From a virus: a DNA stretch of 64,000 bases. The notes under the pieces were generated by a model that saw only the letters and a program-made list of their open reading frames with translations, searched no databases and had not been told where the DNA came from. Both the position numbers and the translations under genes were made by a program. Positions 16,143 through 63,626 of the stretch are shown piece after piece. How positions within the stretch are numbered: the first letter of the stretch is position 1; every line of letters begins with the position of its first letter. The stretch spans positions 37,702 to 101,701 of the IMG/VR virus record IMGVR_UViG_3300045007_000107; one strand, written 5' to 3'.

Positions 16143-17774
16143 GTGAAGTCTATGCCCGAGCAGTACCGGCCCCGTCTCCGCATTCTGATTGACCCCGTCT
16201 ACGTGCAGATCAGCAATCTGTCGGGGTCGTCCACCTACCGCAAGTACGTCACTCTTGTCCGTGAGCTAGTCGCTCGCGGTCATTATTGTTTTTGGTGTGT
16301 CCCCGACGCCGAAGGTTACGTGCCCGATGAGATCGAGAACCATCCTAACGTTGGCATTATTCGCACTGGCGTTATCCAAGACCAGTTCGTGGTCGATGGA
16401 CTCGTCACGGATGACTTCTTCAACCTCTTCAACCGGGTCGCGGGCAAGTACCACATCGACGTTCTTTGCACATCCAGAAACAGCCTTGCAGCCTATTATA
16501 AACGACTGTTGGAGCCGCCCCGGTTCCACGACAATCGTGGTGACTATACCGACAAGGGATACGGCGTCCCGACTGTTCTCATCGAAGAGTTTCCTCAGAC
16601 CCGAGAGCGACAGAATTCGGGTGAGGCTTACTGGCTTATGCAAACTCTAGGGTACATCGCCAGCGACAAGACGGTGTTCCTGTCCGGCCACAACCGTTCG
16701 GAAGTGGTCAAAGAGATGGCGGACTATATCGTCACCTCCAAGGTCAAGAGGTTCATCGATGAGCAAGCGCGTGTCATCCCCGCCGGCATCGAATGTGATC
16801 AGCTTGACACGATCTACGACCCGAACCGCTGGCAGCACGAAGAAGGCTTTCGGGTGGTCTCTATTGGCCGCATTTTTGGCGTCTCTTATTCTGAATACGT
16901 GCCTTGGTTTGATTATCTGTTCAAGAGTGGACTGTCTGACGCGCAGCTTACCGTCTCGCTCTCTGGCGCCCTTGGTGGCCCCATGCGGAACAAGCTCAAG
17001 AAACTAGGGTTCGACTTCGGCAACGTGGGCCGGCAGTACCGCATCCTCGAAAATAACAACCGGGCAAACTTCATCCGACAGCTTCGGGGGTATCACGCCT
17101 TCGTCTGCCCGCTAAGTCACCTCGACCATCCTACGGGGCTTTTCGAAGCCATTTACATGGGCCTCCCCGGCGTCATGCCGGTCTCGGACTATCAGCGTAC
17201 GTTCTTCCATGACTGGCCCTGGGTTATCGAGCCCAAGGATAAGGCGCGTTTGCTCGCGCATCTTCGCTGGATCAGGGAGAACAAAGCCGAAGCGCGCGAG
17301 ATGGTCCTACCGTGGCGCCAGCGTATCCGTGAGCAGTACAACGCGAAAGATCGGATTGGCGAACTCTGCGACGTGATCGAGGGGGCGGGTCGTGCTCACA
17401 TCAACCGCTTTAAGACTTCTTCCGCTGTTCTTAAATTCTGCCGCGAACTTAAGGGCGTTAGTTACAGCTTTGCGGACGTTGTCGCGTTCCTCAAGGAACA
17501 GGGCTACATGGGGATCAGTATCGGCGATATGTCGATACGCACGACGTTCACCTACGCACGCGGGGCTGTGCATCACGCCATGGGTATGGCTGGATACGTT
17601 GATGCTTGTAACGGCCCTGATGATCTGTTCGTGCGCCGAGACGTGTTCGACCGGGATTACCTCCCTGCGCCGATTGCTCCGCTCCCGCTAACGCAGGAAG
17701 AGAAAATCGATATCCCCTTGCAGACGGCTGCAAAGCCCGGTCTGCGCCGCTTCACCCCCACGAGGAAAGCCTAA
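16143..17774 (+). CDS. GT-B fold glycosyltransferase-like protein
   Basis: VIPAGIE, then AFVCPLSHLDHPTGLFEAIYMGLPGVM resembling the GT4 donor-binding motif. Confidence 0.65.
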   Translation: MKSMPEQYRPRLRILIDPVYVQISNLSGSSTYRKYVTLVRELVARGHYCFWCVPDAEGYVPDEIENHPNVGIIRTGVIQDQFVVDGLVTDDFFNLFNRVAGKYHIDVLCTSRNSLAAYYKRLLEPPRFHDNRGDYTDKGYGVPTVLIEEFPQTRERQNSGEAYWLMQTLGYIASDKTVFLSGHNRSEVVKEMADYIVTSKVKRFIDEQARVIPAGIECDQLDTIYDPNRWQHEEGFRVVSIGRIFGVSYSEYVPWFDYLFKSGLSDAQLTVSLSGALGGPMRNKLKKLGFDFGNVGRQYRILENNNRANFIRQLRGYHAFVCPLSHLDHPTGLFEAIYMGLPGVMPVSDYQRTFFHDWPWVIEPKDKARLLAHLRWIRENKAEAREMVLPWRQRIREQYNAKDRIGELCDVIEGAGRAHINRFKTSSAVLKFCRELKGVSYSFADVVAFLKEQGYMGISIGDMSIRTTFTYARGAVHHAMGMAGYVDACNGPDDLFVRRDVFDRDYLPAPIAPLPLTQEEKIDIPLQTAAKPGLRRFTPTRKA

Positions 17775-17917
17775 TGTCCCCTGACGATCTCAACGACGTA
17801 CTGTCGGCCTACCGCGAAGCCCTGCTAGAGCACGGGCCGGACATGGGGATCAAGCCGAAGTACGTTGAAACCCTCGTGGCGCAACTCGGCGCCCGCATCC
17901 TGGGAGCACTCAAGTAA
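17774..17917 (+). CDS. 47-aa hypothetical protein
   Basis: TAATG coupling at both ends. Confidence 0.6.
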   Translation: MSPDDLNDVLSAYREALLEHGPDMGIKPKYVETLVAQLGARILGALK

Positions 17918-18780
17918 TGGCCCTCGCTAAGAAGCTTCCTCCGAAGGTCGCGCCGAAGAAGCCGGCTCCGCTCAAGCGTTCGACCCTGGAAATTTTCGAC
18001 ATTCCGGTCGATGATCTGGTCGGCCACGAGGACAACCCGAACGAGCAGGACGAAGCAACCTTCGACCAGCTTGTCGAGGGCATCCGCGCGGACGGGTTCG
18101 ATGAGCCGATCCAAGTCGTTCCTATCGAGGGCGGCACGCACGCCGGCAAGTGGCAGATCTTCTCGGGTCACCACCGCGCCAAGGCTGCGAAAGTCCTCGG
18201 CCTCAAGGTCATCCCCGCTGTCGTCAAGAAGGGCTGGAACGAGGACAAGGTCAAGATCGAACTCGTGCGCCGGAACCGGCTGCGCGGCAACCTCAATTCC
18301 GAGAAGTTCACGAAGCTCTACAACGAACTCAAGACGCGTGGCTGGGACGAGTCCATGCTCAAGTTGCAGATGGGCTTCACAAAAGAGGACGCGTTCAAGA
18401 AGGTCTACAAGTCCATCGAAAAGGCGATGACGCCCTCGCAAAAGAAAAAGCTCGAAGAGAGCAAGGAGAGCATCAAGTCGGTGGACGGCCTTTCGTCCGT
18501 GCTCAACGACATCTTCAAGAACCATGGCTCCGACCTCGACCACGGCTTTGTCGTGTTCAACTTCGGGGGCAAGGAGATCCACTACATCGAGACCGACACC
18601 TCGCTCAACAAGCAGGTCAAAGCGCTCGAAGAGGAGTGCCGCAACAAGGGCATCACCCTGGCGGACGCCTTCAAGCACCTGCTGAACCGCCCGAACTTGA
18701 GCGGCGTGAAGAAGTCCGGTACAGTCCAAGCTCCCGCGAAGGTGAAGCCCAATGCTAAGACATCGTCGGCCGCTGCGTAA
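17917..18780 (+). CDS. ParB/Srx N-terminal domain protein
   Basis: NPNEQ...LVEGIRADGFDEPIQV...IFSGHHRAKAAKVLG...IPAVV. Confidence 0.85.
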   Translation: MALAKKLPPKVAPKKPAPLKRSTLEIFDIPVDDLVGHEDNPNEQDEATFDQLVEGIRADGFDEPIQVVPIEGGTHAGKWQIFSGHHRAKAAKVLGLKVIPAVVKKGWNEDKVKIELVRRNRLRGNLNSEKFTKLYNELKTRGWDESMLKLQMGFTKEDAFKKVYKSIEKAMTPSQKKKLEESKESIKSVDGLSSVLNDIFKNHGSDLDHGFVVFNFGGKEIHYIETDTSLNKQVKALEEECRNKGITLADAFKHLLNRPNLSGVKKSGTVQAPAKVKPNAKTSSAAA

Positions 18781-19387
18781 GCTCAGCATCTCCAAGGACA
18801 TTCGCTCCCCCTCCGAACGGCAGCGGGACGCGCAAGAACGGTACATGGTGAAGCTCGTTGTCGAGAACCCCAAGTACCAGCTTGCGCTCGCGACGCTCAA
18901 GGAGGGGGTGCCGATCATCCAGATTGCCTCCCACTTCGCGGACAATGCCTGGATCACAGTCAACGAGCGCACGTTCGCGGAGGCCCTGCGGACGTATCGT
19001 CGCCTGCACCAAGACCACATCGACAACTTCCAGCCTGACAGCATCGACAAGTACGTGGATGCGAACAGCCCGAACATCGATGTCGAGAGCGCCCTCTCTC
19101 AGATGCTCCGTCTACAGAAGGAGCGCATCGCCATCGACTACCGTCACGAAAAAGAGATGGGAAAGCTGTTCGACACCACGCACCGCGAGATCAAGACGTT
19201 CGGCGAGATCGCAGAACTCATGCTCAAGACGCAGGGCAAGGTCAGCGGGACCGGCGGACCTGTGCGGCGTTCGGGCGAGGCAACTCCGCAGGACGTGAAC
19301 GACAACCTCGCCCTGATCAAGAAGGATCAGAACACGCAGGATCGTCTTCACGGCCTCACGCGACAATTGGTTGAGGCCAAGTCATGA
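18752..19387 (+). CDS. Putative terminase small subunit
   Basis: Helical protein with HTH-like N-terminal half, coupled directly to TerL. Confidence 0.5.
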   Translation: MLRHRRPLRKLSISKDIRSPSERQRDAQERYMVKLVVENPKYQLALATLKEGVPIIQIASHFADNAWITVNERTFAEALRTYRRLHQDHIDNFQPDSIDKYVDANSPNIDVESALSQMLRLQKERIAIDYRHEKEMGKLFDTTHREIKTFGEIAELMLKTQGKVSGTGGPVRRSGEATPQDVNDNLALIKKDQNTQDRLHGLTRQLVEAKS

Positions 19388-21510
19388 TCATCATCTCCGA
19401 CAAGCCCCCGACCAAACCGCCGCTCCGTAAAGTGCCCCCGCCCAAAAGGCGGGGTCCTGTCGTTGAGGCGACCGGTCTCAGCTTGCAGCCGTCTGCACGC
19501 CCGAAGGTCAGCCCGGCCGATACCGGGTTCTCTCTGGACGAGCGCACGCAAATGGTGCTCGATCAAATCCGCGAGGAAGCGGAATTCCTAGAGGATCGGG
19601 AGACGCGCGACCTCTGGCTCGACGGCTGCAACACCTTCGAACAGACCGGTGATATCGCCTCGCTCATCCAGCTTACAGCCTACCGTCGCAGGATCGTCCC
19701 CATTGACGAGTTCATGTACGGGCGGACCTATCTCGGGCTCAAGCGCGATGAGATCTATCCCGGCGTGATCGAAGCCTGCGAGGCTATCGACACCGACCAG
19801 TTTACCGAAGTCATCCTCAAGGGCGCGTTGGGCGGCGGTAAGACGACCATCGGCAACTTCATGCTGGCGCGCAGCCTTTACAAGATCTCCTGTATGCGGC
19901 ACCCGCAGTCGAGCTTCGGCATCAAGTCGGGATCGTCGCTGATCTTCACCATCCAATCGATCCGCAAGTCTACCGCGCAGAAGGCGGTGTTCGAAGAGTT
20001 CGGCGGCGTCATCAACAAGTCGCCCTACTTCAAGCGGACCTACCCGTACGATCCGCTGATCACGTCGAGCATGATCTTCCGTGAGCAGAACGTGACAATC
20101 ATGCCGGTCGCAACCTCGACCACGGGCGCCATTTCGATGAACGTCATCGGCGGCATCTTGGACGAGGTGAACTTCATGCAGAAGATCCTCAAGTCCACGT
20201 CGCAGCACGCCGACGACCAGGGCGCGTTCGATCAGGCGAAACAGATCTACCAGAACATCGCCCGCCGCCGTAAGTCCCGCTTCGCCAAGCACGGCAAGCT
20301 GCCGGGCATCCTGTTCCTGATCTCGTCCTCGCGCTTCCCCGACGACTTCACCGAGAAGAAAGCGGCCGAAGCTGCAATGTGCGGCGGCACCGACCCGACC
20401 ATCTATGTTTATTCGAAGGCGGTGTGGGAGTCCAAGGGTCGCGACAACTTCCTGCCTGAGAACTTCCGGGTGCAGGTTGGTAACGCCTCGCTGCGGTCCA
20501 AGATCCTCGAAGAGGGCGAAGCCTGCGATCCCGAGTGCCAGGAGCTTCACGTTCCGCTCGACTTCCTCGATGAGTTTAAGGACGATCTGGACGGGTGTAT
20601 TCGCGACTTCGCGGGCGTGTCTACGCTGTCTACCAATCCGTTCTTTACGAACCGCGACCGCATCAACGAGTGCATGAAGCTGGGAGCCGAGCATGGGTAC
20701 CAGAGCCCCTTCGACCTGGAAACATACGACTTCTCCCTTGGGATACCGCACCCCAATGTACACCGACTGCGAGCAGACATTGATGCTCCTCGCACAGTTC
20801 ACATCGATCTCGGCCTTAAGCGGGATGCTTGTGGGATCACTATTGCTCACCTTGCCGGCCAGAAGCTTGTTAAGAGAGTGGACCCCGTAAACGGCTACGA
20901 GGAGAGCCACCTGCTGCCGGTCATCGGCGTGGATTGCTCTCTTCGTGTTGTGCCGCCGAAGGGCGGGGAGATCCAGTTCGCGCATATCCGCAGCTTCATC
21001 CTCATGATGCGGGATCGTTACAAGATACCGATCAAGTGGGTCACGACGGACGGCTTCCAGAGCGTGGACACCCGCCAGATCCTCAAGACACAGGGGTTCC
21101 TTACCGACTACCGATCGGTCGAAGACTTGGAGTCCTATCGCAGCCTGCGCGACACGATCTATGAGCAACGGCTGTTGCTGCCGAACAATGAATTCCTCAA
21201 GCAGGAGTTGGCCGGTCTTGAGTACAAGCGAACTCCCACTAAAGATAAGATCGATCACCGTGCTAATGGCACTAAGGATATGGCTGACGGCCTCTGCGGC
21301 GCTGTTGCATTTCTGCTGGAAAGGAAAGCTGCCTGGATCGGGCTAGGTCCGGTGCCGCAGCGACACCCGATGCAGGGGCACAACAATCCGCCCTCAGACA
21401 CCGAGGTCGCACGCGACAACGCCCATCTCGCCGGCACCCAAGCCCAGGGGACTGTACGGCGTGCAACCATGCGAAAATCGGTATTTAGGCGACGTTCCGT
21501 GCGCAAATAG
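19384..21510 (+). CDS. terL: Terminase large subunit
   Basis: Walker A GALGGGKT, Walker B GILDE, RNase H-like IDLGLKRD, TDGFQS, KDMADG. Confidence 0.9.
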   Translation: MIIISDKPPTKPPLRKVPPPKRRGPVVEATGLSLQPSARPKVSPADTGFSLDERTQMVLDQIREEAEFLEDRETRDLWLDGCNTFEQTGDIASLIQLTAYRRRIVPIDEFMYGRTYLGLKRDEIYPGVIEACEAIDTDQFTEVILKGALGGGKTTIGNFMLARSLYKISCMRHPQSSFGIKSGSSLIFTIQSIRKSTAQKAVFEEFGGVINKSPYFKRTYPYDPLITSSMIFREQNVTIMPVATSTTGAISMNVIGGILDEVNFMQKILKSTSQHADDQGAFDQAKQIYQNIARRRKSRFAKHGKLPGILFLISSSRFPDDFTEKKAAEAAMCGGTDPTIYVYSKAVWESKGRDNFLPENFRVQVGNASLRSKILEEGEACDPECQELHVPLDFLDEFKDDLDGCIRDFAGVSTLSTNPFFTNRDRINECMKLGAEHGYQSPFDLETYDFSLGIPHPNVHRLRADIDAPRTVHIDLGLKRDACGITIAHLAGQKLVKRVDPVNGYEESHLLPVIGVDCSLRVVPPKGGEIQFAHIRSFILMMRDRYKIPIKWVTTDGFQSVDTRQILKTQGFLTDYRSVEDLESYRSLRDTIYEQRLLLPNNEFLKQELAGLEYKRTPTKDKIDHRANGTKDMADGLCGAVAFLLERKAAWIGLGPVPQRHPMQGHNNPPSDTEVARDNAHLAGTQAQGTVRRATMRKSVFRRRSVRK

Positions 21511-21511
21511 C

Positions 21512-21609: not shown

Positions 21610-22257
21610 ATGGTTCTACGCAAACTACCCGTGCAGCCGTCTGCACGACTTACGGAGTTCGAACTTTGCCCCACCCCTTACATGATCGGTTCGGACGATC
21701 CGAGCGTTATCTGGCGGGAGGCCGTCCACGGTCTCTTCGCTCACCTCTGCCGCTACTTCGAACCTGACAAAACCTACGGTGAATTCGAGGTCGCTCAACG
21801 TCTCGACGTTCACCGCATCATCGCCGACGAATGGCTTACGGCGATGGTTCGGCTCGAATTGATCGAACCTATACCGGTCAAGCATCGCGTCGATCCGTTC
21901 ATGCAGTGCCTCGCCTTCCGTATCCCCAAGGCGCAGCATGTCGGCAAGAAAATCAGGGTCGAGATCGAATACGGGGACCTACGCGAGTACGACCCGTGGA
22001 CGGATCGGCAGTACGACGATCAGCTAGTCGAGGCACACTGGCCGGAGCGCTACTGCGACAAGTATTTCAACGCACACCATCATGAGTATTACCTGATCAC
22101 AGGGCGGTCGCGTAAACGCCCTGACGGAACCATCTTCGTGCCTTTGCCGGCGGATAGGGCGGGGCTTCCTCCCCTCCGTACGCGCAAGGACCCCGTTAAA
22201 CCCGAAGAGAGACAGGTCTATGCCAAAGCAAACAGCCTCGACCTCTCGGAATACTAG
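21610..22257 (+). CDS. Hypothetical protein with wHTH-like segment
   Basis: EFEVAQRLDVHRIIADEWLTAMVRLELI. Confidence 0.6.
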   Translation: MVLRKLPVQPSARLTEFELCPTPYMIGSDDPSVIWREAVHGLFAHLCRYFEPDKTYGEFEVAQRLDVHRIIADEWLTAMVRLELIEPIPVKHRVDPFMQCLAFRIPKAQHVGKKIRVEIEYGDLREYDPWTDRQYDDQLVEAHWPERYCDKYFNAHHHEYYLITGRSRKRPDGTIFVPLPADRAGLPPLRTRKDPVKPEERQVYAKANSLDLSEY

Positions 22258-22371
22258 GTTTCCGTTGTTGCGTACGATCCTCCTGGGTCTGCTATGCGCT
22301 GCTCTGGTAATCGGTGCGTTCTGGATTGGTACGAGTATCTATCTCTGGTACTTGCTGTCGTTGGTCGTGCC

Positions 22372-23252
22372 ATGATGGAAGCCCTACAATCCATCATCGA
22401 TCCTGCCACGGGCTACAGTTTGGTGATATGGGCTGTCGCCTCTGCGCTGATAGTTATTCATGCAATCTGGAAGTTCGTCCGTAACTGTATGCTCGCGCGG
22501 CGGGAGCGGGCAAGGGAGGAAGAGGAGGTCCGCGTCCGCACCCGAAACCGGATGCGTCGGCAGCTAGAGGTAGAAAGCCTTGAGCGTGCGCTCGCTTCGG
22601 GGCCTTCGTCTGTGCATACAGGGATCGAACCTCCGCTAGACCCACCGTTAGGGACAAGTTGGGTCGATCCACGGACGGGCTACCTGTTCGTACACGTGCG
22701 TCCTCGCTTCTGGCGGTCTGTTTCGGGCCAAACCGAGGACTTCTACGACCGGCGCCCACCCGAAGGGTTCCCGAGAGTGAGCGTAGCCTCCGAACTAGCG
22801 CGCATCACCACAAGGCCCAAGCCCTTGCAGCCGGCTGCAAGCAAAGTCGAGGAACCGTTCTCGCTCAAGCGGCGAGTACGCATCAAAGCACCTACAACGC
22901 TGAAACGCAATGCGATACCCTTACGGAAACTTCGGATGCCCGACTAATGGCGATAGCCCAGCGCAAGCGACTTCCCGACGTGCGAGAGTACGTCAAAGCC
23001 GGCGTCAAGCCGCACCAGCTACCGGGGCTCCTCGCCGAGTATTCGATGGATGAGTACCTCAACTTCTGCCAGCGGTTCCGGCTCTGGTTTCCCGACAATC
23101 TGGAATACTACATCCGGTCCACGTACGGACTAATGGAATACCTCAAGAAGCACGACCGTCTCGACGCCGAAGAGAAAACCTACTGGCTCGGGCGGATCGT
23201 GTCATACAAGCGGATGCTTTGGAGAGTACGTAATGGCCTTGACCCATACTGA
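22372..23252 (+). other. Two hypothetical genes (22372-22947 single-TM; 22947-23252)
   Basis: TAATG coupling. Confidence 0.55.
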
Positions 23253-23781
23253 CCTACGGTCGGATGCCTTGCTCAAGGAACAGGGCTTTACCGCCGAAGA
23301 CATCGAGTTTATGCACGAACTGGCACAAGCCTACTGGACCTATCTTGTCGAGTACGACGAAGCCGAACAAAAGCGGGATTGGGACGCGCACAACCGGCTT
23401 GAGGGCGTCATCCAAGTGACCGAGTTCCAGCTTCTTTATCGCGGGCTCCACCCTCGCGAGATTCCCTTCGACGCACTTGTCGCGATCACCCGTGCTCCCC
23501 TGGACGGTCGCGGCGACGTAGCGGACCAGATCACCGCCAAGTACAAAGAACGCATCCACAACCCCGCGACCGCGATGCGGGCGAACTGCGTGGTTTGCAT
23601 GGGCGGCTCAACCGCTGAAATTCGACGCTGTGGCGCGGTCAACTGCCCGCAGTGGCCTTTCCGCCTCGGAACTAACCCTCTCCGTAATGCCATACTGCCG
23701 CCTGTAGCACTCACGGTCATTGAGGACGACGACGTTCTCGATATCGATGAGTCCACGGACAGCGGCGACGCAAGCGAGTAA
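23233..23781 (+). CDS. Cys4 zinc-finger protein, paralog 1
   Basis: AMRANCVVCMGG...CGAVNCPQWPFRLGTNP. Confidence 0.7.
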   Translation: MALTHTDLRSDALLKEQGFTAEDIEFMHELAQAYWTYLVEYDEAEQKRDWDAHNRLEGVIQVTEFQLLYRGLHPREIPFDALVAITRAPLDGRGDVADQITAKYKERIHNPATAMRANCVVCMGGSTAEIRRCGAVNCPQWPFRLGTNPLRNAILPPVALTVIEDDDVLDIDESTDSGDASE

Positions 23782-24714: not shown

Positions 24715-26559
24715 ATGCCGCTCCGCAAACTGCATCCAACCAAGCAAGTAAAGGCTGCACGCCGCGCCGGTCGCGTGAGCAATGCCCGCCTTATCGAGGT
24801 CGAGCGCAAGGGCGTTACCGCCCCGTTCGATGAGTTCATCGAGAAGGCCGCCGACCTGAATTCGCAACAGGTCTCCGACCCCTTCACAAGCTGGTACGGC
24901 CACAACACGGCCGGTCTCAACCTGAACCCGGTACAGCCGGTGTTCTCGTTCGACCGCCTCGCGTTCATGGTCACGCAGTCGAACATCCTGCGTCAGTGCA
25001 TCGAGGCGTACGTCGTTAACATCGAGTCCTACGGTCATACGCTCGAATATATCGGGCCGGAGGGCCAAGAGGACAGCGAGGACGCCAAGAGCGAGAAGGC
25101 GCGGCTCGAAGCGTTCCTGTCCTCGTGCTCGGCCACCTCCTCCCTACGCGAGATGCGCGAGCGCGCCCGCTGGGATCAAGAGACCCTAGGCAACAAAGCA
25201 TTCGAGATCGGCCGCAACCTCACCGACGAGGTTGTGATGATGGAGCACGTGCCGTTCAACACCCTGCGGCGTACCAAGCAGGAAGAGGACGCTATCGAAG
25301 TCGTCGTCTCGGTGCCGAACCCGGCCGATCCTTCCGAGATGGTCACGCGCATCGTGCGTCGTCGCTTCTGCCGCTGGGTGCAGACGAAGAACGGCGGAAC
25401 CGAAAAGGTCTACTTCAAGGAATTCGGCGACCCGCGCCCCATCGATCCGAAGACCGGCCTCGTGAACCCCGGCCTCCCCTTCGAGCGGCAGGCGACGGAG
25501 ATCCTCGCGTTCTCGCTCTACACGCCGGGATCGTTCTACGGTCTCCCGCGCTGGATCGGACAGATCAAGTCGATCATGGGTTCGTCCGAGAGCGAGTTGG
25601 TCAACCTCAACTTCTTCAAGGACAACGCGATCCCCGCGATGGCTGTGCTCGTTTCGGGCGGCGCGCTCACGCAGGAAAGCTTCGACGTGATCGAGAGCTA
25701 CCTTACCGCCGTGACCGGCGTGAAGGCGATGCAGCGCATCATGGTGCTTGAGGCGACGGCCGACGAGAGTAGCGGATCGGTGGATCACGCGACTGCCGCC
25801 CCGAAGATCGACATGAAGCCGATGATCAGTGAGCGGCAGCAGGACGGTCTCTTTCAGGACTACGACCAGAAGAACCAGGGCAAGGTCCGTTCGGCCTTCC
25901 GTCTGCCGCCGATCTATACCGGACGCGCCGAGGACTACACCCGCGCGTCCGCGTACGCATCGATGTTGACTGCGGAGAACCAGATCTTCATCCCTGAGCG
26001 TCAAGCGTTCGATGACATCATGAACACGCGCATCCTGCGCACCTACAATCCGAGGTTCTGGCGCTACAAGTCCAACGGCGCCCCGATCACCGACAGCGAC
26101 AGCCTGTCGAAGATGATGTCTTCGTTCGAAGCCTCGGGCGCTCTCACCCCGAATGTGGCGATCAAGATCGCGAACAAGGTGCTCGGCGTGGACATCAAGC
26201 CCGTGGTCGAGTCGTGGGGCGACTACCCCTTCGCGATCATCGAAGGCTACATCCAGCAGGGTCGCGAGATCGACGGTCTCAACGAATTCCTTGTCGAGAT
26301 GGAAACGGCGGCAACCGCGCCAACGGCCCCGCCAGCGGCGAACGGCAACGCCAGCGGCTCCGGTACCGGGGGCAACGCCGCGCCCGCCCGTGCGCCCGTA
26401 GCGGCCCGCAAACGGGCACCTCTCCGCAAACTTGCGTCGCCGGAAAAGCGCCAGCTTCACAACATGATCCGCAAAGAAATGCAAATAATTGTCAGCGACC
26501 TTCGCAATGAGTTACAACAATCCTTGCAGACAGATGCAAGCGAGCGTGTTGCCGCATGA
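24715..26559 (+). CDS. Portal protein (PBSX XkdE-like)
   Basis: YGLPRW, NLNFFKDNAIP, VRSAFRLPPIYTG, YTRASA motifs; position after TerL. Confidence 0.88.
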   Translation: MPLRKLHPTKQVKAARRAGRVSNARLIEVERKGVTAPFDEFIEKAADLNSQQVSDPFTSWYGHNTAGLNLNPVQPVFSFDRLAFMVTQSNILRQCIEAYVVNIESYGHTLEYIGPEGQEDSEDAKSEKARLEAFLSSCSATSSLREMRERARWDQETLGNKAFEIGRNLTDEVVMMEHVPFNTLRRTKQEEDAIEVVVSVPNPADPSEMVTRIVRRRFCRWVQTKNGGTEKVYFKEFGDPRPIDPKTGLVNPGLPFERQATEILAFSLYTPGSFYGLPRWIGQIKSIMGSSESELVNLNFFKDNAIPAMAVLVSGGALTQESFDVIESYLTAVTGVKAMQRIMVLEATADESSGSVDHATAAPKIDMKPMISERQQDGLFQDYDQKNQGKVRSAFRLPPIYTGRAEDYTRASAYASMLTAENQIFIPERQAFDDIMNTRILRTYNPRFWRYKSNGAPITDSDSLSKMMSSFEASGALTPNVAIKIANKVLGVDIKPVVESWGDYPFAIIEGYIQQGREIDGLNEFLVEMETAATAPTAPPAANGNASGSGTGGNAAPARAPVAARKRAPLRKLASPEKRQLHNMIRKEMQIIVSDLRNELQQSLQTDASERVAA

Positions 26560-27179
26560 AACCGCAGGAGCTACTTCGAAAGTTCACGTCAGGGGGCGCA
26601 CGCCCCCGTACGCGTTTTGACGTGAGCATCAAGAAGCTCGATGCCGACGAGCAGGTTGTTTACGGCGAAGTCTACGCGCCGAACCTGATCGACAGCCACG
26701 GCGACATGATGCTCGCGGAAGACGTGCGGCTTATGGCCCATCGCTTCATGATGTCGGGTCTCAACGACCAGATCGACATCATGCACGACAACAAGGTCAT
26801 TAAGGCCGCCGCCATCGAGAGTTGGATCGCGGGCGACGATGACGCGGTCTACAATCCCGGCGCCTGGGTCGTGGGCGTCAAGATCGCCGACAGCAAGGTC
26901 TGGCAGAAGATCAAGCGCGGTGACTATGCCGGGTACTCCATCGAAGCAATGGTCAACAAGCAGGAGGCCATTGTCGAGGTGCAACACTTCAAGCACATGT
27001 TCCTCTACAGCGAGGAGCACGACGGGCACGATCACGCTGTCTTCGTGACCCTGGACGAGAATGGGCGTGTGACGGGTGGCCGCACGTCCAAGGCAGCGGA
27101 TGGTCATTGGCACAAGATCCGCTACGGTACCAAGACCGCCACTACCAACGGACACAGCCATCGGTATGTACTCCCATGA
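26556..27179 (+). CDS. XkdF-like prohead serine protease with His-rich C-terminal extension
   Basis: EQVVYGEVYAPNLIDSHGD, IDIMHD, ESWIA, GAWVVGVKI, W.KIK.G.Y.GYSI. Confidence 0.82.
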   Translation: MKPQELLRKFTSGGARPRTRFDVSIKKLDADEQVVYGEVYAPNLIDSHGDMMLAEDVRLMAHRFMMSGLNDQIDIMHDNKVIKAAAIESWIAGDDDAVYNPGAWVVGVKIADSKVWQKIKRGDYAGYSIEAMVNKQEAIVEVQHFKHMFLYSEEHDGHDHAVFVTLDENGRVTGGRTSKAADGHWHKIRYGTKTATTNGHSHRYVLP

Positions 27180-28588
27180 GGCAAGAGCCTAAGACGCAAA
27201 AAATCAAAGTAAGCTTGCTGCGGAACCCCAATCCGCAGTTTATTTCCATAGTAGACCACGGGGCGAACCAAACTCCGTGGAACGTCGTCAAGCGTGCGGT
27301 GCCCTCAAAGGGAAGCGCACCCAAGGAAGGAGCGAAGAAAATGGCTTTGCGCAAGATCACGCCGGCCAAGAAGGGTGAGCAGACCAAGACGGCCAAGCGC
27401 GAGGCGTCGGTCCGCAAGCTCACATTCAGCCAGGAGCATTTCGAGGACCAAGAGGCCGTCGAGAAGTGGCTGGAAGAGAACGACTGGAAGGACTTCGTCA
27501 TCACCGAGGACGATGATCACTTCGTCGTCGCCACCAAGGGCGTGAAGGACGAGGACTTCGAGCGCATCAACGAGATCGAGACCGACACGGTCGGCGTCGT
27601 CGGCTACGTCGGCCAGCTCACCGAGGAAGCTGTCGCCAAGCGCGCCAAGAAGGCCGCCAAGGCGAAGAAGGCCGGCGGCAAGGGCGATCAGCCCGACGAT
27701 GCCAACGACGAGGCCGAGGGCGAGGACGCCGACGAGGACGCCGAGGGCGACGAGGACGAAGAGTCCGAGGGCGAGGACGGCGAAGGCGACGACGATCAGG
27801 AGACCGTGCGCGCCGTCAAGGTCGATTGGTACGACATGTACGTGTCGAACGGTCAGACCGTGAAGGACGTGCTCGATGACGGCATGTCCGATGGTCTGCC
27901 GCCCGGCACCGAGACCATCATGTCGGCCGTGCTCTACGCCGTCAAGAACGTGCTCGGCTCCGGCCAGGACAGCGCCGCCAAGCGCGCCGCCCTCAACGGC
28001 ATCGGCGCCGAGATGGCCGAGATCGTCGGCACCGTCGATGACGTGTTCGCTGCCGCCCTCAAGCAAGCGAGCGCGAAGAAGACGGCGAGCGTCAAGTCCT
28101 TCGTCAAGACGTGGAAGGCGGACATCGAGAACAACCCCGATCCCGACGAGGAGGACGAGAACGAGGACGAAGGCGAGGACGAGACCGAGACGCAGGAGCA
28201 GCAGAAGCCCGCTCCGAAGGCGGCCAAGACCAAGAAGGGCGACGTGCAGCCGTCTGCAAGCCAGGGGCTCGACCCGTCCGTCATCGCGGCGGCCATCGGC
28301 AAGAGCGTCGGTGTCGCGGTCAAGGACGCCATGAAGCCGGTGCAGAACCGCCTCGGCGAGATCGGCAAGGAAATGAAGTCCCTCGCCGAGAAGACCGACA
28401 AGGCGACCAAGGCGGCGGCCACGGCCAACGCGTCCATCGACCGGATCGCCAAGCGGTCGCAGTTCTCGCAGTCGTCCAGCGAGGACGCCTCGCGGAACAT
28501 CTCCAAGACGCGCAAGAACGGCGGCGAGGACGATGCGCGCGAGCGCTCCCGCTTCGTGTCGGGCCTGCTCGGCATCCCGACCACGTAA
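27176..28588 (+). CDS. Scaffold-like acidic protein (possible second in-frame start at 27341)
   Basis: Acidic and coiled-coil; lies between protease and capsid; N-terminal ISIVDHGAN; internal AAGGAG RBS. Confidence 0.7.
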   Translation: MRQEPKTQKIKVSLLRNPNPQFISIVDHGANQTPWNVVKRAVPSKGSAPKEGAKKMALRKITPAKKGEQTKTAKREASVRKLTFSQEHFEDQEAVEKWLEENDWKDFVITEDDDHFVVATKGVKDEDFERINEIETDTVGVVGYVGQLTEEAVAKRAKKAAKAKKAGGKGDQPDDANDEAEGEDADEDAEGDEDEESEGEDGEGDDDQETVRAVKVDWYDMYVSNGQTVKDVLDDGMSDGLPPGTETIMSAVLYAVKNVLGSGQDSAAKRAALNGIGAEMAEIVGTVDDVFAAALKQASAKKTASVKSFVKTWKADIENNPDPDEEDENEDEGEDETETQEQQKPAPKAAKTKKGDVQPSASQGLDPSVIAAAIGKSVGVAVKDAMKPVQNRLGEIGKEMKSLAEKTDKATKAAATANASIDRIAKRSQFSQSSSEDASRNISKTRKNGGEDDARERSRFVSGLLGIPTT

Positions 28589-58026: not shown

Positions 58027-58033
58027 GCACTGA

Positions 58034-58109
58034 TGCCGGATAGCTAAGTTGGTAAAGCAACGGTCTTTGGTACCGTCATCCGCAGGTTCGAATCCTGCTC
58101 CGGCAACCA
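58034..58109 (+). tRNA. tRNA-Gln(UUG)
   Basis: TGCCGGA/TCCGGCA acceptor; ACGGT-CTTTGGT-ACCGT anticodon arm; GGTTCGAATCC; encoded CCA. Confidence 0.92.
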
Positions 58110-58115
58110 ATCTGG

Positions 58116-58190
58116 ATGGGCGTATTTCAGCGGTTAGAATGTCGGTCTCCAAAACCGAAGACGCGGGTTCGAGTCCCGCCGCCCGTGCCA
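58116..58190 (+). tRNA. tRNA-Trp(CCA)
   Basis: ATGGGCG/CGCCCGT acceptor; TCGGT-CTCCAAA-ACCGA; GGTTCGAGTCC; encoded CCA. Confidence 0.93.
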
Positions 58191-58307
58191 CCCCCGCTGT
58201 GAACAATGCGGTAGAGCTTTAGCTCCCCATAGGTGCAGCCCTAAATGGTGTTACGTTCATCGTAAGTGGTCCGACACTGATAAGCGCAAGACGCGTCATT
58301 TGGACGA

Positions 58308-58336
58308 TTGACAAAAATCTCACATATCCATAGTAT
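58308..58336 (+). promoter_or_regulatory. Sigma70-like promoter upstream of the AAA+ operon
   Basis: TTGACA-N17-TAGTAT. Confidence 0.65.
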
Positions 58337-58496
58337 GTCTCTGCCGTGGCAATGGCAGCGAATGAACAACGGGGCGTCAGCGATGACGCTCCGTTTTCTT
58401 TTGCCCGAAAGACCTATACGAGATTATTTTATTGCGCTAAGACAGGTGCTCGTATACTCTACGCTTGCGCATAGCGCGTTTGCCACGGAGCACCAC

Positions 58497-60242
58497 ATGC
58501 CTGTAATGTCATCGGAAGCCGCGCGCACTGTGCGCAACGCGGAAACATTCGTCAAGGATTTCGACCATCGTTCGGCCGCTGGCGTCGCCGTCTTTATCGT
58601 GCGGACGCGCGAAATCCTCCGCACGCAGCACACGTTGCAGGACTACGCCATCCAAGAGGGGATGGACTTCAAATCCTGGCAGTGCAACACCGGCATCGCG
58701 AACTACCCCGCTGTGCGGCCCGATCAGCCCATGGACGACAACGGGCGAAAGCCGTCGAACTTCGTGACCAGCCCGGCGACGTTCGGCATCGACAAAGCGT
58801 TGGAGTATTGCAGCGCCCAGCTAAGCGGCGAAGTGCTGATCACCTTCACCCACGCCCACGGCAAGCTCGACAACAACGTGATCCAGCAGTGGATCAATGA
58901 TCTCGCGTTCAAGGGCATGACTAGCGCGCACCAGCGCTTCGTGTTCCTCGTGCCGCTCGACTACGTGCCGCCGCCTGAGATCGAGGAAAGCATCTATCTC
59001 ATGGACTTCCTGGCTCCCTCGCACGCGGAGCTTCGGGACAGCTACAACGACGTGCTCGCGAGTATCCGCGAGGGTGAGGCGCCGGAATTTTCCGAGGCGG
59101 AAATCAACAACCTCATCCAGAACGGCCTCGGCATGACCAGCCAAGAATTCGGCACCGCCGTATCGCTGGCCTCGGTTACCTTGCATCCGTCTGCACGCGG
59201 CGAGGACGCCCCGCCTCCCACCGTCGATGACTTTATCAAAATCGTTCTCGACCAAAAGGTCCAGATCATCCGCAAGACCAACATCCTTAAGCTCATGCCG
59301 TCCGTCAGGATGGACGAGGTCGGCGGCCTCGATCTTCTCAAGAAGTGGATCGGGGATCGTGCGGTCGGCTTCACCGAGGAAGCCAAGACTTTCGGCGTCG
59401 AAGCGCCCAAGGGCGTGCTCACGGTCGGCCCGCCCGGTACGGGTAAGTCGCTGCTCGCCAAGGCGGTCGCGTCGGTGTTCCAGCTACCGCTCGTCATCAT
59501 GGACATCAGCGCGGTATTCGACCGGTTCGTCGGCAACTCCGAGGGCAAGATGCGTTCGGCCCTGGCGCTGATCGACGCGATGGCGCCGTGTGTGCTGCTC
59601 GTGGACGAAGTGGACAAGGGTTTCGCGGGAGCCTCCGGTGGCGGCGGTGGCGGCGACGGCGGTATCACCCAGCGCGTGTTCGGTACGTTCCTCACGTGGA
59701 TGCAGGAGCGCAAGAACGACGAGAAGCCCGTCTTCACCGTCATGACCGCGAACAACATCCTCGGTCTGCCGCCCGAACTCATGCGTAAGGGTCGTATCGA
59801 TGAAATCTTCTCCGTCAGCTTCCCGTCCGCGTTGGAAGCGGCCGAAATCCTCAAGATCCACTTGAACAAGCGCGGTCACGAGGATACTCTGACGGACGGT
59901 GAAATTCGCGAGGTCGTGACAAGCTGTCACAACTTCGTCGGCGCCGAACTCGAAGCTATCGTCAAAGACGGTCTGTACACCGCCTTCAACAGCCCGCAGG
60001 GCGAACTCACGAAGGAAATCCTGATCAATCAGGCCAAAGCACTCAAGCCTATGTCGGTCACGTTCGCGGATCGTATCCGGGTGCTGGACGATTGGGCCAA
60101 GAACAACACCAAGCCCGCATCAAGCGGCCAGACCTTCACCACGGACGACGAGGCCAAGCCGGCCGCTACCGGTGGGTTGCAGCGTCGCCTTCTCCGTCCC
60201 CGCACCAAGGCGGCGGCCCCCGGCCGTACCATGGACAACTAA
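58497..60242 (+). CDS. Ycf46-like AAA+ ATPase
   Basis: VGGLDLLKKW, GPPGTGKSLLAKA, LLVDEVDKGF, FGTFLTWMQE, TAN..LPPELMRKGRIDEIF. Confidence 0.88.
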   Translation: MPVMSSEAARTVRNAETFVKDFDHRSAAGVAVFIVRTREILRTQHTLQDYAIQEGMDFKSWQCNTGIANYPAVRPDQPMDDNGRKPSNFVTSPATFGIDKALEYCSAQLSGEVLITFTHAHGKLDNNVIQQWINDLAFKGMTSAHQRFVFLVPLDYVPPPEIEESIYLMDFLAPSHAELRDSYNDVLASIREGEAPEFSEAEINNLIQNGLGMTSQEFGTAVSLASVTLHPSARGEDAPPPTVDDFIKIVLDQKVQIIRKTNILKLMPSVRMDEVGGLDLLKKWIGDRAVGFTEEAKTFGVEAPKGVLTVGPPGTGKSLLAKAVASVFQLPLVIMDISAVFDRFVGNSEGKMRSALALIDAMAPCVLLVDEVDKGFAGASGGGGGGDGGITQRVFGTFLTWMQERKNDEKPVFTVMTANNILGLPPELMRKGRIDEIFSVSFPSALEAAEILKIHLNKRGHEDTLTDGEIREVVTSCHNFVGAELEAIVKDGLYTAFNSPQGELTKEILINQAKALKPMSVTFADRIRVLDDWAKNNTKPASSGQTFTTDDEAKPAATGGLQRRLLRPRTKAAAPGRTMDN

Positions 60243-60257
60243 GCGAAAGGAACCTCT

Positions 60258-60608
60258 GTGCCGCTTCGTAAAGTGGGCGCCCCTGCGGCGCCCCCCAAGC
60301 CCGTCCCCGCCGCCAAGACGTTCAAGCATCCTGCACAGGAGCGTGTTCGCAAGCCCGAGCCCGCCCAAAAGGATGAGACCGAAGATAAGGGAGTACCTCG
60401 AACGGTCACTGTTCGTTTGCACCCGAAGCACTACGATATGCTGCAAGCTATCGTGGACGCGCGGGAGACAGACAAGTCGGATGCGCTGAAATATCTTATC
60501 AGGACAGGCTTTCAAGCCTATTCAGCGCATGACGCCGAGCTTACACTCACGGACACGGCGGGGCGTATCACCACGATCCCCATCGTGAACAACGGCAAGC
60601 CTGCCTAG
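60258..60608 (+). CDS. Ribbon-helix-helix protein
   Basis: RTVTVRLHPKHYDMLQAIV...DKSDALKYLI. Confidence 0.65.
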   Translation: MPLRKVGAPAAPPKPVPAAKTFKHPAQERVRKPEPAQKDETEDKGVPRTVTVRLHPKHYDMLQAIVDARETDKSDALKYLIRTGFQAYSAHDAELTLTDTAGRITTIPIVNNGKPA

Positions 60609-60621
60609 GAACGGAGCGAAC

Positions 60622-61257
60622 ATGCTATTGCAGGTAACCACGGGCGAAGAGTCCTTCCCCGGTACGACGTGCAAGGTCGCGGCCACGTACGCCAGAACCA
60701 CGGCCTTGCAGCCGTCTGCAATGCATGTCCAGCCGAAGGACCCACGGTCGGGCGTCAGCAAGGTCGGGCAGGATCAATACTTCCCGGCCTCTTCGCGCAA
60801 CCGGAACCACGGGCAATGGATCGTCGGGCGGTACGCCGTACCCGAACAGTCCATTGTCCGCATTCGTTCGCAGCACCGCGAGTTGCGCAACGGACCTTTC
60901 TACGAGAACGCGTCCCTGTTGATCCGTATGCGGGAACAAGCCGCCCTGCGGGTTGTCCGGGTCACGCTCACACAACACGAGTACGCGGCCACACACTTCG
61001 CCTACTTCGAAGGACGGTTCGACATTGTCCGGCCCGAATGGTTCGAACAACTCGGATACGTTCCCGTTCCCGCAGAGGCGGGCGAATACATTGACGGCAC
61101 CGACCTTAATGGGGTAATCACCGTCGAAGTCAGTGAGGCTGAGATATCCCGTTGGGAGCCCGGCGCGGTGCGCTCGGTGGTTACATCAACGGGCCAACGC
61201 GTCGAATTGCCAACTGCTGGCGTTCGGCGTAAACTGCGGATACCGCAACGGCGGTAA
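60622..61257 (+). CDS. Hypothetical protein in the AAA+ operon
   Basis: ACGGAG RBS; operon position. Confidence 0.65.
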   Translation: MLLQVTTGEESFPGTTCKVAATYARTTALQPSAMHVQPKDPRSGVSKVGQDQYFPASSRNRNHGQWIVGRYAVPEQSIVRIRSQHRELRNGPFYENASLLIRMREQAALRVVRVTLTQHEYAATHFAYFEGRFDIVRPEWFEQLGYVPVPAEAGEYIDGTDLNGVITVEVSEAEISRWEPGAVRSVVTSTGQRVELPTAGVRRKLRIPQRR

Positions 61258-61274
61258 GTACGGAGCATACGAAT

Positions 61275-61721
61275 ATGTCCCACAACGTGCAAATCTCGGG
61301 CGTCAAGATCGCGAACATGGATGCGCTGCGCTCGGCCATCGATGAGCTTCGCACGGGCGGCGTCGATATCTCGCTCGATCAGTGCGGCACCTTCCGCACC
61401 TATCGGGGTCAGCCGAACCGGGCCGAGTACACGATCCACCTGCCGCGCGAGACCTACGACATCGGCCTCAACCGGACGCCCGAGGGTCACTACGCCCCGG
61501 TGTTCGACCACGACCTGATCCGCAACGGATCGGTGGCCTGCGCTTGGGAGCCGGGCGAGCGTCCGTCCGCCGACGACCGCGTGGCCGGCGCCATCGGCAA
61601 GGTCATGCAGATGTATTCGGTGCATCTCATGGAGCGTGAGGCGGCCATGAAGGGCTACTCCACCCGCCGCGAAAGCGCCGAGAACGGCGCCGTCGAGGTC
61701 GTCGTGGACATGGCGGCCTAA
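61275..61721 (+). CDS. DUF1257 / Ycf35-like protein
   Basis: MSH...I...DAL..A..EL, YDIG, Y..V.D, QMYS......A..KGY. Confidence 0.8.
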   Translation: MSHNVQISGVKIANMDALRSAIDELRTGGVDISLDQCGTFRTYRGQPNRAEYTIHLPRETYDIGLNRTPEGHYAPVFDHDLIRNGSVACAWEPGERPSADDRVAGAIGKVMQMYSVHLMEREAAMKGYSTRRESAENGAVEVVVDMAA

Positions 61722-61787
61722 CATAACCCGGCGCGGGCTCTAGGGTCCGCGTCACCCTGATCCCCAGCCAACGCACACGAGGACAAC

Positions 61788-61988
61788 ATGGCCGAAATTC
61801 GCATCACCATCGACAAGATCGGCAAAGTCAAGATGGACGCCGAAGGGTTCACGGGCGAAGCCTGCCGCGACGCGACCGGTTCCTTCGAACAGGCGCTCGC
61901 CGGCGTCGAGGTCCAGCGCGACCTCAAGTCCGAATACTACGACACGCCGGCCGAGAGCGGCGTCGATGCCGAGAACATGCGGATGTAA
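61788..61988 (+). CDS. DUF2997-like protein
   Basis: I.I.IDKIGKV...EGFTGEAC...T..FEQAL.....R.LK.EYY. Confidence 0.82.
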   Translation: MAEIRITIDKIGKVKMDAEGFTGEACRDATGSFEQALAGVEVQRDLKSEYYDTPAESGVDAENMRM

Positions 61989-62015
61989 CTTGCAGCCGTC
62001 TGCAAGCGCGTAACC

Positions 62016-62045
62016 AGGGCGGGGGCTTCGGCTTCCGCCCTTTTT
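62016..62045 (+). terminator. Rho-independent terminator
   Basis: AGGGCGGGGGC-TTCG-GCTTCCGCCCT-TTTT. Confidence 0.8.
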
Positions 62046-62472
62046 GTATCCGTGTGAGGTTCCGATGCTCCCCTACAGCAAGATCATCATCATGGCGGTC
62101 ACGATGGAACCGGCATCCCTGGTCGCGGTTCTGGCCGCCCTCGATGCACTCCACATCAAGGACGACAGTAAGGCGTCCGCCCGCTATTCAACGGCTGTGC
62201 GCCGGGGTATCATATTCTGCTAACCCGGAGGACCACATGCCCCGTATCGTCACCCAAGACGGCACCGTCATCCGCACCGATCCCGGCGCCCCTACAGCCT
62301 CGGAACCCTTCGGGGCCGGCTACCGGTCCCCGGACCTGCCGCCGCCCGCCAGCGATGCGGAAAACCCCGTTAATAACGGGTACCGTTGGATGCATCGGAT
62401 CAGCGATCCTCCCGTAACCCCCGACTGCGAGTGCCCGCTCTGCAAGCTCGGTTTTCCACTGAGGCTCGGCTA

Positions 62473-62811
62473 ATGACGAAACTCGTTTATCGCATCGACG
62501 CGAACGGCAATGTCGAGGGTCTGCTCAAGGACACGGCTATCGACAGTCGGATCTTTGCGGGCCGTCGCGAGATCCACCGCATCACTCTGATTGAGCATGA
62601 TCCCGACGAACAGAAATTTCACATCCAGTGGCTCGCCGGTCCGTTTAAGGGTCAGTACCACGACAATGTGATCGATGCGTCGATCTTCGACCGTCCCACC
62701 GAAGGCGACCCGCTTAAGGACATGCTGTTCGACACTTACGAGGAAGCGGTCGAGCACGAGATCCGGTGCGTCAACGCGCTGCGGCACAAGGGCGAGAACT
62801 TCAAGCTCTGA
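62473..62811 (+). CDS. Hypothetical protein, likely companion of the DUF1257/DUF2997/AAA module
   Basis: YRIDANGNV..L...I.R...IE......F....EA..HE pattern. Confidence 0.6.
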   Translation: MTKLVYRIDANGNVEGLLKDTAIDSRIFAGRREIHRITLIEHDPDEQKFHIQWLAGPFKGQYHDNVIDASIFDRPTEGDPLKDMLFDTYEEAVEHEIRCVNALRHKGENFKL

Positions 62812-62835
62812 TACACACCCGAAACAAACTGTGGC

Positions 62836-62860
62836 AGGCGGGATACACTCCCGCCTTTTT
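62836..62860 (+). terminator. Rho-independent terminator
   Basis: AGGCGGGA...TCCCGCCT-TTTT. Confidence 0.75.
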
Positions 62861-62993
62861 CGTACTTGACAGCCCTCTTGCAGCCGTCTGCAACTACTAC
62901 TTTGGAGGTACTACTACGTTGACAAAGAAACTACACTTGGGTTAAACTTAAGAGGTACTTCCCTATACTAATGATCCCTACCAAGGCGAAGTA

Positions 62994-63626
62994 ATGCCTT
63001 CGACTGCACCTGACTGGAAACAGACTTTCTCGGTCATGAGAGACGTTATGTTCGCTAACCGCATGTACATGGATCTCTACGAGCGTGAGACGGTCGCCTT
63101 TATCTTTGGGCGAACGCACCTCTACGGTAAAGAGTGGGAGAGCATCTCCCTGCGCCAGTTCATGCACGGCGTGCGTCGGATCGATGACGGAGCCTACATC
63201 GCCTCCCCCGTGGCTATGTCGCGAGGCAAGCTTCTCGAAAGCCTGCGACACCTCAAGGCGAAAGGATACATCGAAGTCCGCTACAGCGCCGGCTCCACGC
63301 TCTACCGTTTGACGGAGGATGTGAACCCGGAACACGCGATGCGCTACATGCAACGCCACCAGAAAAAGGAATTCGAGAGTATCTTCGGCCGCCTCCACAA
63401 GACCGAGATGCGGGACGCTGTAATACGGCAAGCTTGTAATACGGGACGTAATACACGTAATACGTGGTCCGAATACGAACCATCAAGTGGTTCGAATACG
63501 GTCCAAGACTTGGTTCGTATACGGCCCAATATAATAGTACCGATAGATAATAGGACTAATTCTAATAGTGCGGGTCGGAAGCCTCCCCGCAAGCCTTTAA
63601 GGAAACTCAGCTTAGGAAGAGTGTAA
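62994..63626 (+). CDS. Replication initiator (lambda O-like N-terminal wHTH)
   Basis: FIFGRT..YGKEWESISLRQFMHG...MSRGKL..SLRHLKAKGYI; internal repeats. Confidence 0.7.
   Translation: MPSTAPDWKQTFSVMRDVMFANRMYMDLYERETVAFIFGRTHLYGKEWESISLRQFMHGVRRIDDGAYIASPVAMSRGKLLESLRHLKAKGYIEVRYSAGSTLYRLTEDVNPEHAMRYMQRHQKKEFESIFGRLHKTEMRDAVIRQACNTGRNTRNTWSEYEPSSGSNTVQDLVRIRPNIIVPIDNRTNSNSAGRKPPRKPLRKLSLGRV
63419..63570. repeat. Putative replication origin: iterons plus AT-rich tract
   Basis: TGGTYCGWATACG at 63465, 63488, 63511 (23-bp period); four GTAATAC upstream; AT-rich 63528-63570. Confidence 0.7.

Follow-up and report, generated by a model that had tools for sequence, protein, structure and literature searches.

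A single short terminal motif can dock many unrelated DNA enzymes to a DNA-bound hub, as the clamp-binding motifs do (QL[SD]LF or Q-L-x-L-F for the beta-clamp, Q-x-x-[LIM]-x-x-[FY][FY] for the PIP box, and the gp45-binding C-termini of phage T4), and the T4 capsid-targeting sequence is an N-terminal peptide that is common to unrelated internal proteins and acts as an address. UmuD bears a tether, related to the XB tail of SspB, that is read by the N-terminal zinc-binding domain of ClpX. According to passages of PMC3983244, the XB tail has the sequence RGGRPALRVVK and the ClpX N-domain binds MuA, lambda O and UmuD directly; passages of PMC12373786 report that XB is active at any polypeptide position, that its fusion to eGFP leads to ClpXP-dependent loss of the protein, and that ClpX N-domains are highly conserved across bacteria. 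Finally, short basic peptides such as the pVIc 'molecular sled' of adenovirus bind DNA and slide along it, with tolerance for changes in their sequence (PMC4797294 and PMC4740752). Here, we analyse a short peptide, PLRK[LVIF] and its variants (hereafter the tag), that recurs at the termini of many proteins of one phage. The stretch of DNA analysed, called the window, is 64,000 nucleotides long and covers bases 37702-101701 of IMG/VR record IMGVR_UViG_3300045007_000107, a 101.7-kb virus record estimated to be 79% complete and designated G000 below.

An unbiased scan of all 5-mers in the 63 coding open reading frames (ORFs) of the window (17,481 amino acids) ranked PLRKL second, with 5 occurrences against 0.017 expected (Bonferroni 3e-5). 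In the 99 proteins of G000 (25,155 amino acids), PLRK[LVIF] occurs 9 times, compared with a mean of 0.09 and a maximum of 2 in 1000 per-protein shuffles, and eight of these nine copies lie within 15 amino acids of a terminus, a zone that holds 11.8% of the residues (binomial 3e-7). The broader pattern LR[KR][LVIF] is found 23 times in the same proteins, 17 of them terminal where 4.4 are expected, and in seven proteins the motif begins at residue 2 or 3. Nearly all genes are on the + strand. Of the coding-like ORFs, 15 of the 126 on the + strand carry LR[KR][LVIF] within a 16-amino-acid terminus versus none of the 115 on the - strand, and the remaining ORFs, used as frame and strand controls, give 7/297 and 2/340. 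The genes of G000 and of its relative G001 were called by longest ORF and codon-position G+C content, with overlaps of up to 90 nt allowed; some starts may be wrong. A sequence-only reading of the window had noted this recurrence, and the shuffles bear it out.

The same reading had argued that the motif belongs to the protein because its codons differ between copies, and this is indeed the case: among the 11 in-frame LRK sites, Leu is encoded in 6 ways (TTA and TTG among them), Arg in 5 (AGG among them) and Lys by either of its two codons. Third positions vary, as do the first positions of the Leu and Arg codons, and no nucleotide is fixed beyond the needs of the amino acids. Since the codons vary freely, selection acts on the peptide.

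Every instance listed by the sequence-only reading was found in frame where it had been placed, with LRK sites at 18773, 19423, 21616, 22921, 24721, 26422, 26574, 27347, 60264 and 63597. The sites described here are all on the + strand. An LRRV variant outside that list (MSILRRVP, 14460..14471) lies at residues 4-7 of the small ORF 14451-14708. An LRRF variant (GLRRFTP, 17742..17753) stands 10 residues before the C-terminus of a glycosyltransferase-like protein (16143-17774, family match), and the loose variant MALAKKLP (17917..17940) forms the N-terminus of a ParB-like protein (17917-18780, family match). PLRKL follows at residues 7-11 of ORF 18752-19387, in the position of a small terminase (RRPLRKLS, 18770..18784), and PLRKV at residues 13-17 of the candidate large terminase TerL (KPPLRKVP, 19420..19434). 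The latter gene (19384-21510) has no family match and is assigned by its position and its annotated orthologue in Agrobacterium phage JP1, with 47% identity. VLRKL (MVLRKLP, 21613..21627) occupies residues 2-6 of ORF 21610-22257, and PLRKL (IPLRKLRMPD*, 22918..22932) lies 8 residues before the C-terminus of ORF 22294-22947. The portal (24715-26559, family match) has two copies of PLRKL, one at residues 2-6 (24718..24732) and one 45 residues before the C-terminus (26419..26433). LLRKF (ELLRKF, 26571..26585) is found at residues 6-10 of an S78_2/XkdF-type head protease (26556-27179, family match), and ALRKI (MALRKITP, 27344..27358) directly follows the internal ATG at 27341, an inferred start, in ORF 27107-28588, which occupies the scaffold position. 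At the window's right end, the variant LQRRLLRP (60177..60200) lies in the disordered C-tail of a classical AAA ATPase (58506-60242, family match; position also given as 58308), PLRKV (60261..60275) at residues 2-6 of ORF 60258-60608, which has a GTG start (GTG-PLRKVG), the variant VRRKLRIP (61222..61245) at the C-terminus of ORF 60622-61257, and PLRKL (KPLRKLSLGRV*, 63594..63608) 9 residues before the C-terminus of ORF 62994-63626. The ORFs at 60258, 62994 and 18752 gave no significant match in Pfam, PHROG or NCBIfam, which leaves their earlier labels 'RHH', 'initiator' and 'TerS-like' unconfirmed.

Upstream of the window, G000 encodes a DnaB-like helicase, PolA, a second helicase, a RecA-like protein, an HNH protein and a Cas4-type exonuclease. 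PolA is tagged at both ends (MPLRQF... and ...LPLRKVTLGARRAA*), the exonuclease begins with MPLRKI..., ORF 5823-6389 of G000 has a tag at its C-terminus, and several early proteins carry the tag in the form MxRLIRRIG. When the G000 proteins with an assignable role are divided by function, the strict pattern marks 7 of the 14 proteins of replication, DNA modification, packaging and head assembly, as opposed to none of the 13 proteins of the capsid shell, adaptors, tail, fibre and lysis region (Fisher 0.006). The tag is restricted to DNA-handling and head-assembly proteins.

Relatives were collected through their portal, TerL, AAA and capsid proteins, and include the uncultured G001 (a 90-kb record, 96% complete) and three cultured phages whose termini were read from the depositors' own coding sequence (CDS) calls: JP1 (capsid 54% identical to that of G000), Rhodobacter phage RcTiptonus (49%) and Pseudomonas phage SM1 (37%, from an annotated capsid CDS that is partial). 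The tag is a feature of the whole clade, including JP1, RcTiptonus and SM1. Orthologues of 26-64% identity carry it at corresponding termini, in line with the conservation in homologues that the sequence-only reading had set as a check, namely at both ends of PolA and TerL, at the N-termini of ParB and the portal, and at the C-termini of the glycosyltransferase and the AAA protein; the orthologue table contains no tag on the major capsid protein, the tape measure protein, tail proteins, DUF1257 or DUF2997. The core shared across the clade is [P/A]-aliphatic-basic-basic, of which PLRK[LVIF] is the local form of G000. The exact L-R-[KR]-aliphatic spelling is nearly confined to G000, with 0-2 such termini per related locus, and related loci spell the tag I-K-K-R, I-R-K-R or F-K-K-R. 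In the portal alignment, LRKL, RRRI, KL, VRKI, RRKI and RRRI occupy shared columns. For TerL, the tblastn alignment begins only at residue 58-59 in 4 of the 6 related loci, indicating that the N-tail is an add-on.

JP1 illustrates the respelling, with MPIRLKRKF at the terminus of the terminase, MPKKLIKKK on ParB, MPIKKRGG on the RecA-like protein, MPKLAKRRRRIG on the portal, MKVKPISVRRKV at the N-terminus of the scaffold orthologue and ...KKPAIRKRIKVRK* at the C-terminus of the glycosyltransferase. The head-protease orthologue of RcTiptonus begins with MALSVRKLL. Glycosyltransferase orthologues in G001, JP1 and RcTiptonus all have basic-aliphatic C-tails, and the ORF that follows the AAA gene in these three phages and in SM1 ends in such a tail, as ORF 60622-61257 does. 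Larger protein families show the same trend: an aliphatic-x(0,1)-basic-basic motif falls within residues 2-9 in 59 of 98 ParB-family homologues (null 6.3, maximum 14) and within the last 30 residues in 61 of 100 AAA homologues (null 22.8, maximum 35), and the tails of both families have a mean net charge of +3.5 to +4.4. Counted per genome as proteins with aliphatic-basic-basic in a 15-amino-acid terminus, tagged proteins number 25/92 in G000 (null 3.1, maximum 10), 12/83 in G001 (null 3.4, maximum 9), 7/54 in JP1 (null 1.2, maximum 5) and 7/60 in RcTiptonus (null 1.2, maximum 4).

The known systems resemble the tag in part. SspB XB is likewise short, of the form Pro-x-Leu-Arg-x-aliphatic and borne on a flexible tail, but the tag is found on about 25 proteins of one virus instead of one adaptor, and the relatives spell it I-K-K-R and the like. 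It has in common with the pVIc sled, by which a protease and further proteins can act along the viral DNA, that it is viral, basic, very short and terminal. The core of the sled, KRRR, has about four basic residues, whereas that of G000 combines two basic residues, two conserved aliphatic ones and a conserved Pro; the JP1 termini MPIKKR and KKKIRLRA* come nearer to the sled. In contrast to the clamp-binding motifs, no tag has the Gln and the aromatic residues, and head-assembly proteins are tagged too. The T4 capsid-targeting sequence differs in that the tag is also C-terminal and present on a polymerase, an exonuclease and a terminase, which are not head cargo.

The reading we lean towards, tentatively, is that the tag is a label, for docking or as an address, by which the proteins of DNA replication, recombination, DNA modification, packaging and head nucleation are held at the phage chromosome. 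We infer both the docking and its partner from a tag whose existence, enrichment, terminal position and conservation are observed. The tag would be presented on a flexible Pro/Ala/Lys-rich leash, as a [Pro/Ala]-aliphatic-basic-basic core often followed by an aliphatic residue. It might bind DNA directly, as a short basic tail of the sled type, or the Arg-Lys pair, together with the two aliphatic side chains, might fit into a groove of a DNA-bound phage protein. As a chromosome address predicts, the tagged proteins are essentially those that work on or beside DNA, and the adenovirus sled is the nearest known concept. Furthermore, a spelling that is crisp within a genome and shifts between lineages looks like co-evolution with an evolving phage-protein reader, more than like charge attraction. 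The sequence-only reading had proposed a shared docking tag or degron that recruits packaging, head and replication proteins to one hub; a protein-level, selected, terminal tag common to unrelated proteins of these three kinds stands, and no hub was found.

Several observations weigh against the chromosome address. The strict pattern is absent from the other 7 of the 14 DNA-side proteins (DnaB, helicase, RecA-like, HNH, methylase, ParB and AAA), although looser variants are present on ParB, AAA and the RecA-like protein, and two of the tagged proteins, the scaffold and the head protease, are no enzymes of DNA. The generic pattern does not rise above the null in SM1 (4/53, null maximum 6). The consensus of the ParB-like protein, a potential DNA-bound partner, has SGHHR and not the arginine patch of the CTP-clamp ParBs. 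A genomic palindrome, described below, lies within 120 nt of 11/22 tagged and 50/176 untagged termini, a weak association (p = 0.05). Lastly, with two basic and two conserved aliphatic residues, the core looks more like the ligand of a protein pocket than like a means of plain charge attraction to DNA.

The main rival, suggested by the likeness of the motif to the tail through which SspB binds ClpX, is that the tag tethers proteins to an AAA+ unfoldase or is recognised by one, either host ClpX, through its N-domain as with the XB tail, or the Cdc48-like ATPase of the phage, so that tagged proteins would be remodelled, disassembled or degraded on schedule, the last being the degron of the sequence-only reading. 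We regard this as unlikely. The XB peptide P-A-L-R-V-V is close to P-L-R-K-[LVI], an unfoldase needs accessible unstructured termini, which is where the tags sit, and MuA and lambda O, phage proteins of DNA transactions, are bound directly by the ClpX N-domain (passages of PMC3983244). However, when termini are compared with the XB-type core (Leu-Arg-x-aliphatic-aliphatic after Pro or Ala, on a flexible tail), the tags of G000 fit L-R-[KR]-[LVIF], mostly with Pro at -1, and L-R-x-aliphatic is specific to G000, the related loci having 0-2 such termini each and other spellings. Such drift is unexpected for a ClpX reader, since ClpX N-domains are reported to be highly conserved. In addition, the portal, a stable part of the virion, and PolA, a long-acting enzyme, each bear two tags, and the AAA protein of the phage has a tag-like tail itself.

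In favour of this rival, the AAA protein of the phage is of the Cdc48/p97 type. Its D2-like domain is closest to Cdc48/p97 (phmmer E = 5e-52), and its AlphaFold2 model (predicted local distance difference test score, pLDDT, 91.5) matches Cdc48/p97 D1-D2 in Foldseek over about 570 columns (E = 1e-21). By sequence and model, the protein is a tandem of a degenerate D1 and an active D2, without an N-domain; it has the Walker A motif GPPGTGKS, DE as Walker B and the aromatic pore loop RFVG. A D1-D2 unfoldase of the Cdc48/p97 type with an aromatic pore loop is a credible reader of terminal tags, and it is plausible, as the model suggests, that the AAA protein is a substrate-threading machine. We rejected the idea that its N-terminal part acts as a peptide-binding adaptor domain, as its first ~235 residues adopt the fold of an AAA domain, a degenerate D1. 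A link between the tag and this N-terminal part was likewise rejected: SM1 aligns only from residue 155 yet has tag-like termini. Among 170 homologues of the first 274 amino acids, many of those of full length finish in a basic tail and then x-[LM]-D-[GN]. In all relatives, the AAA gene is followed by a conserved ORF and then by DUF1257 and DUF2997, which in the window start at 61275 and 61788 (family matches); in the literature found, these two families appear only in a cyanobacterial gene cluster with fed7 (passages of PMC4284462).

A more prosaic possibility is that the motif has no common reader and arises as a by-product of basic, Pro-rich tails and of a first-codon preference linked to translation start efficiency or N-terminal stability. 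The tails of G000 are indeed richer than protein interiors in Arg (1.46x) and Pro (1.45x). Pro is also unusually frequent at residue 2, in untagged proteins too (23/97 in G000 and 12/60 in JP1), for example in the genes that start at 11952, 14710, 24715, 31476, 40086, 57518 and 62994 of the window; SM1 has Ala at this residue instead (20/53). Nevertheless, shuffling residues within the 25-amino-acid tails alone yields 0.03 copies against 8 observed, with at most 2 in any of 2000 shuffles. C-termini and internal positions of the tails bear the motif as well, and its amino acids are kept despite TTA/CTN and AGG/CGN codon swaps, all of which makes a by-product very unlikely. The description of the tails as disordered rests on their composition, their failure to align and the pLDDT of ~50 of residues 545-578 of the AAA C-tail in the AlphaFold2 model; the portal model, built from a 6-sequence alignment (mean pLDDT 41.9), is too poor to judge tail disorder.

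Portal, protease and scaffold are the usual substrates of a prohead protease, and the dibasic RK resembles many protease sites. All three are tagged here, which raised the possibility that head proteins are trimmed at their ends by cleavage at the motif, through the maturation protease of the head or some other protease of the phage. We find this scarcely credible, given that the tag is also found on PolA, the exonuclease, the glycosyltransferase, TerL and early proteins outside the procapsid, that an N-terminal cut after RK would remove only 5 residues, and that the major capsid protein has no copy. A Sec or Tat signal peptide was ruled out, as the tags are followed by Pro/Ala/Lys-rich, not hydrophobic, stretches and are also C-terminal. 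Readings as a kinase site, a nuclear localisation (NLS) or compartment-import signal, an SH3 ligand or a DnaK site were considered and dropped; the hosts of the cultured phages are ordinary Proteobacteria.

A second enriched peptide, [VL]QPSA, is of a different nature, as 8 of its 9 copies come from one identical 14-mer, TGCAGCCGTCTGCA. This is a 14-nt DNA palindrome with 43 exact copies in G000 (32 forward and 11 reverse) compared with 0 for the reversed control. In the window, copies lie on the + strand at 1472, 6668, 10091, 12871, 14058, 14686, 19484, 21632, 24666, 28245, 33839, 38894, 39848, 41931, 54407, 60707, 61991 and 62879, and on the - strand at 4823, 11933, 17719, 30733, 32066, 36047, 44756, 45854 and 56316. 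Of the 43 exact copies, 32 fall between genes or no more than 120 nt from the end of one, and wherever the palindrome lies inside a gene a single frame is used, giving [LV]-Q-P-S-A or L-Q-T-A-A. The palindrome often lies in the same floppy tails as the tags, of which it is a separate feature; the copy at 21632, for instance, is directly 3' of VLRKL in ORF 21610-22257. The thought that the tag itself is an incidentally translated DNA or RNA repeat, such as an operator or a mobile mini-cassette, draws on this palindrome, which adjoins several tags and is read as QPSA, but it is contradicted by the LRK codon usage and by 11 in-frame hits versus 3 on the opposite strand and 2 off-frame, and can practically be discarded.

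Each clade genome examined has its own genome-wide palindrome of the form TGCA-N6-TGCA. The N6 centre is GCCGTC in G000, GGTACC in L009, ATCGAT in G001, RcTiptonus and the loci L017, L019 and L020, and of the AACGTT type in JP1, L010 and L011; SM1 has a related form. Tag and lattice are found together in 5/5 clade genomes, and both are absent from 2/2 outgroup loci. One of these, L029, is the best long locus of the 4 obtained by a capsid-profile search of genome contigs; this contig of a Sphingomonadales metagenome-assembled genome, with a capsid 37% identical, has neither tags nor lattice. The other, L014 (IMGVR_UViG_3300036832_000367), is an unrelated virus contig that was matched through its AAA domain only; it has a repeat of its own, ACTAAGGACGGC, present 6 times in 21 kb. 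The co-occurrence of tag and lattice is a clade-level observation only and not independent evidence, and a fixed composite element of tag and palindrome was set aside in view of the weak association given above (p = 0.05), both merely favouring gene ends. Speculatively, and with low confidence, tag and TGCA-N6-TGCA lattice might be two halves of one undescribed phage system: a DNA-binding phage protein, for which the ParB-like protein encoded beside the terminase is a candidate, would occupy sites about every 2 kb and so mark the phage DNA, and the tags, acting in the manner of clamp-binding motifs, would recruit the polymerase, the nucleases, the DNA-modifying enzyme, the terminase, the portal and the procapsid-nucleating proteins there and not to host DNA, with the tag spelling and the palindrome centre changing together by lineage. 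The literature search found no paper for the palindrome sequences.

As to other partners of the tag, no clamp gene was detected by Pfam among the 75 proteins scanned. A conserved small protein encoded between terminase and portal (23233-23781), kept in G001, JP1 and RcTiptonus, has a strongly acidic and aliphatic C-tail (...IEDDDVLDIDESTDSGDASE*), a mirror image of the basic tag, and could be its counterpart. It has no family match, and its ESM Atlas scores do not exceed 0.84.

A search of the literature found no paper describing the tag, and the RcF-cluster paper (PMC8601537) contains no occurrence of 'motif' or 'N-terminal'; a terminal tag common to a large phage group thus seems to be undescribed in the literature found. 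The group concerned, of 80-110-kb phages of Proteobacteria, is large and widespread. If the tag is an address label, replication, DNA modification, packaging and head nucleation would all be organised by one contact between a peptide and its reader, which would offer both one place to probe or block and a portable tag for targeting proteins to the phage working site. Because RcTiptonus, JP1 and SM1 are cultured and carry the tag, this can be tested at the bench now.

The remaining landmarks of the window, all family matches, are a DNA methylase (9945), the major capsid protein (28656), the tape measure protein (34924), a fibre of 3595 amino acids (42697) and a muramidase (54437). In addition, tRNA-Gln(TTG) and tRNA-Trp(CCA) stand side by side at 58034-58190, just upstream of the AAA gene. 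Outside the window, in the upstream part of G000, a protein of an unnamed PHROG family (L012:8743-9603) starts with the tag-like MPLPRRPMRPP and ends with ...DFDGSDDDSIPF, which resembles the C-terminal tail of SSB; its best blastp match in SM1 (29% identity) has a basic tail at this end instead.

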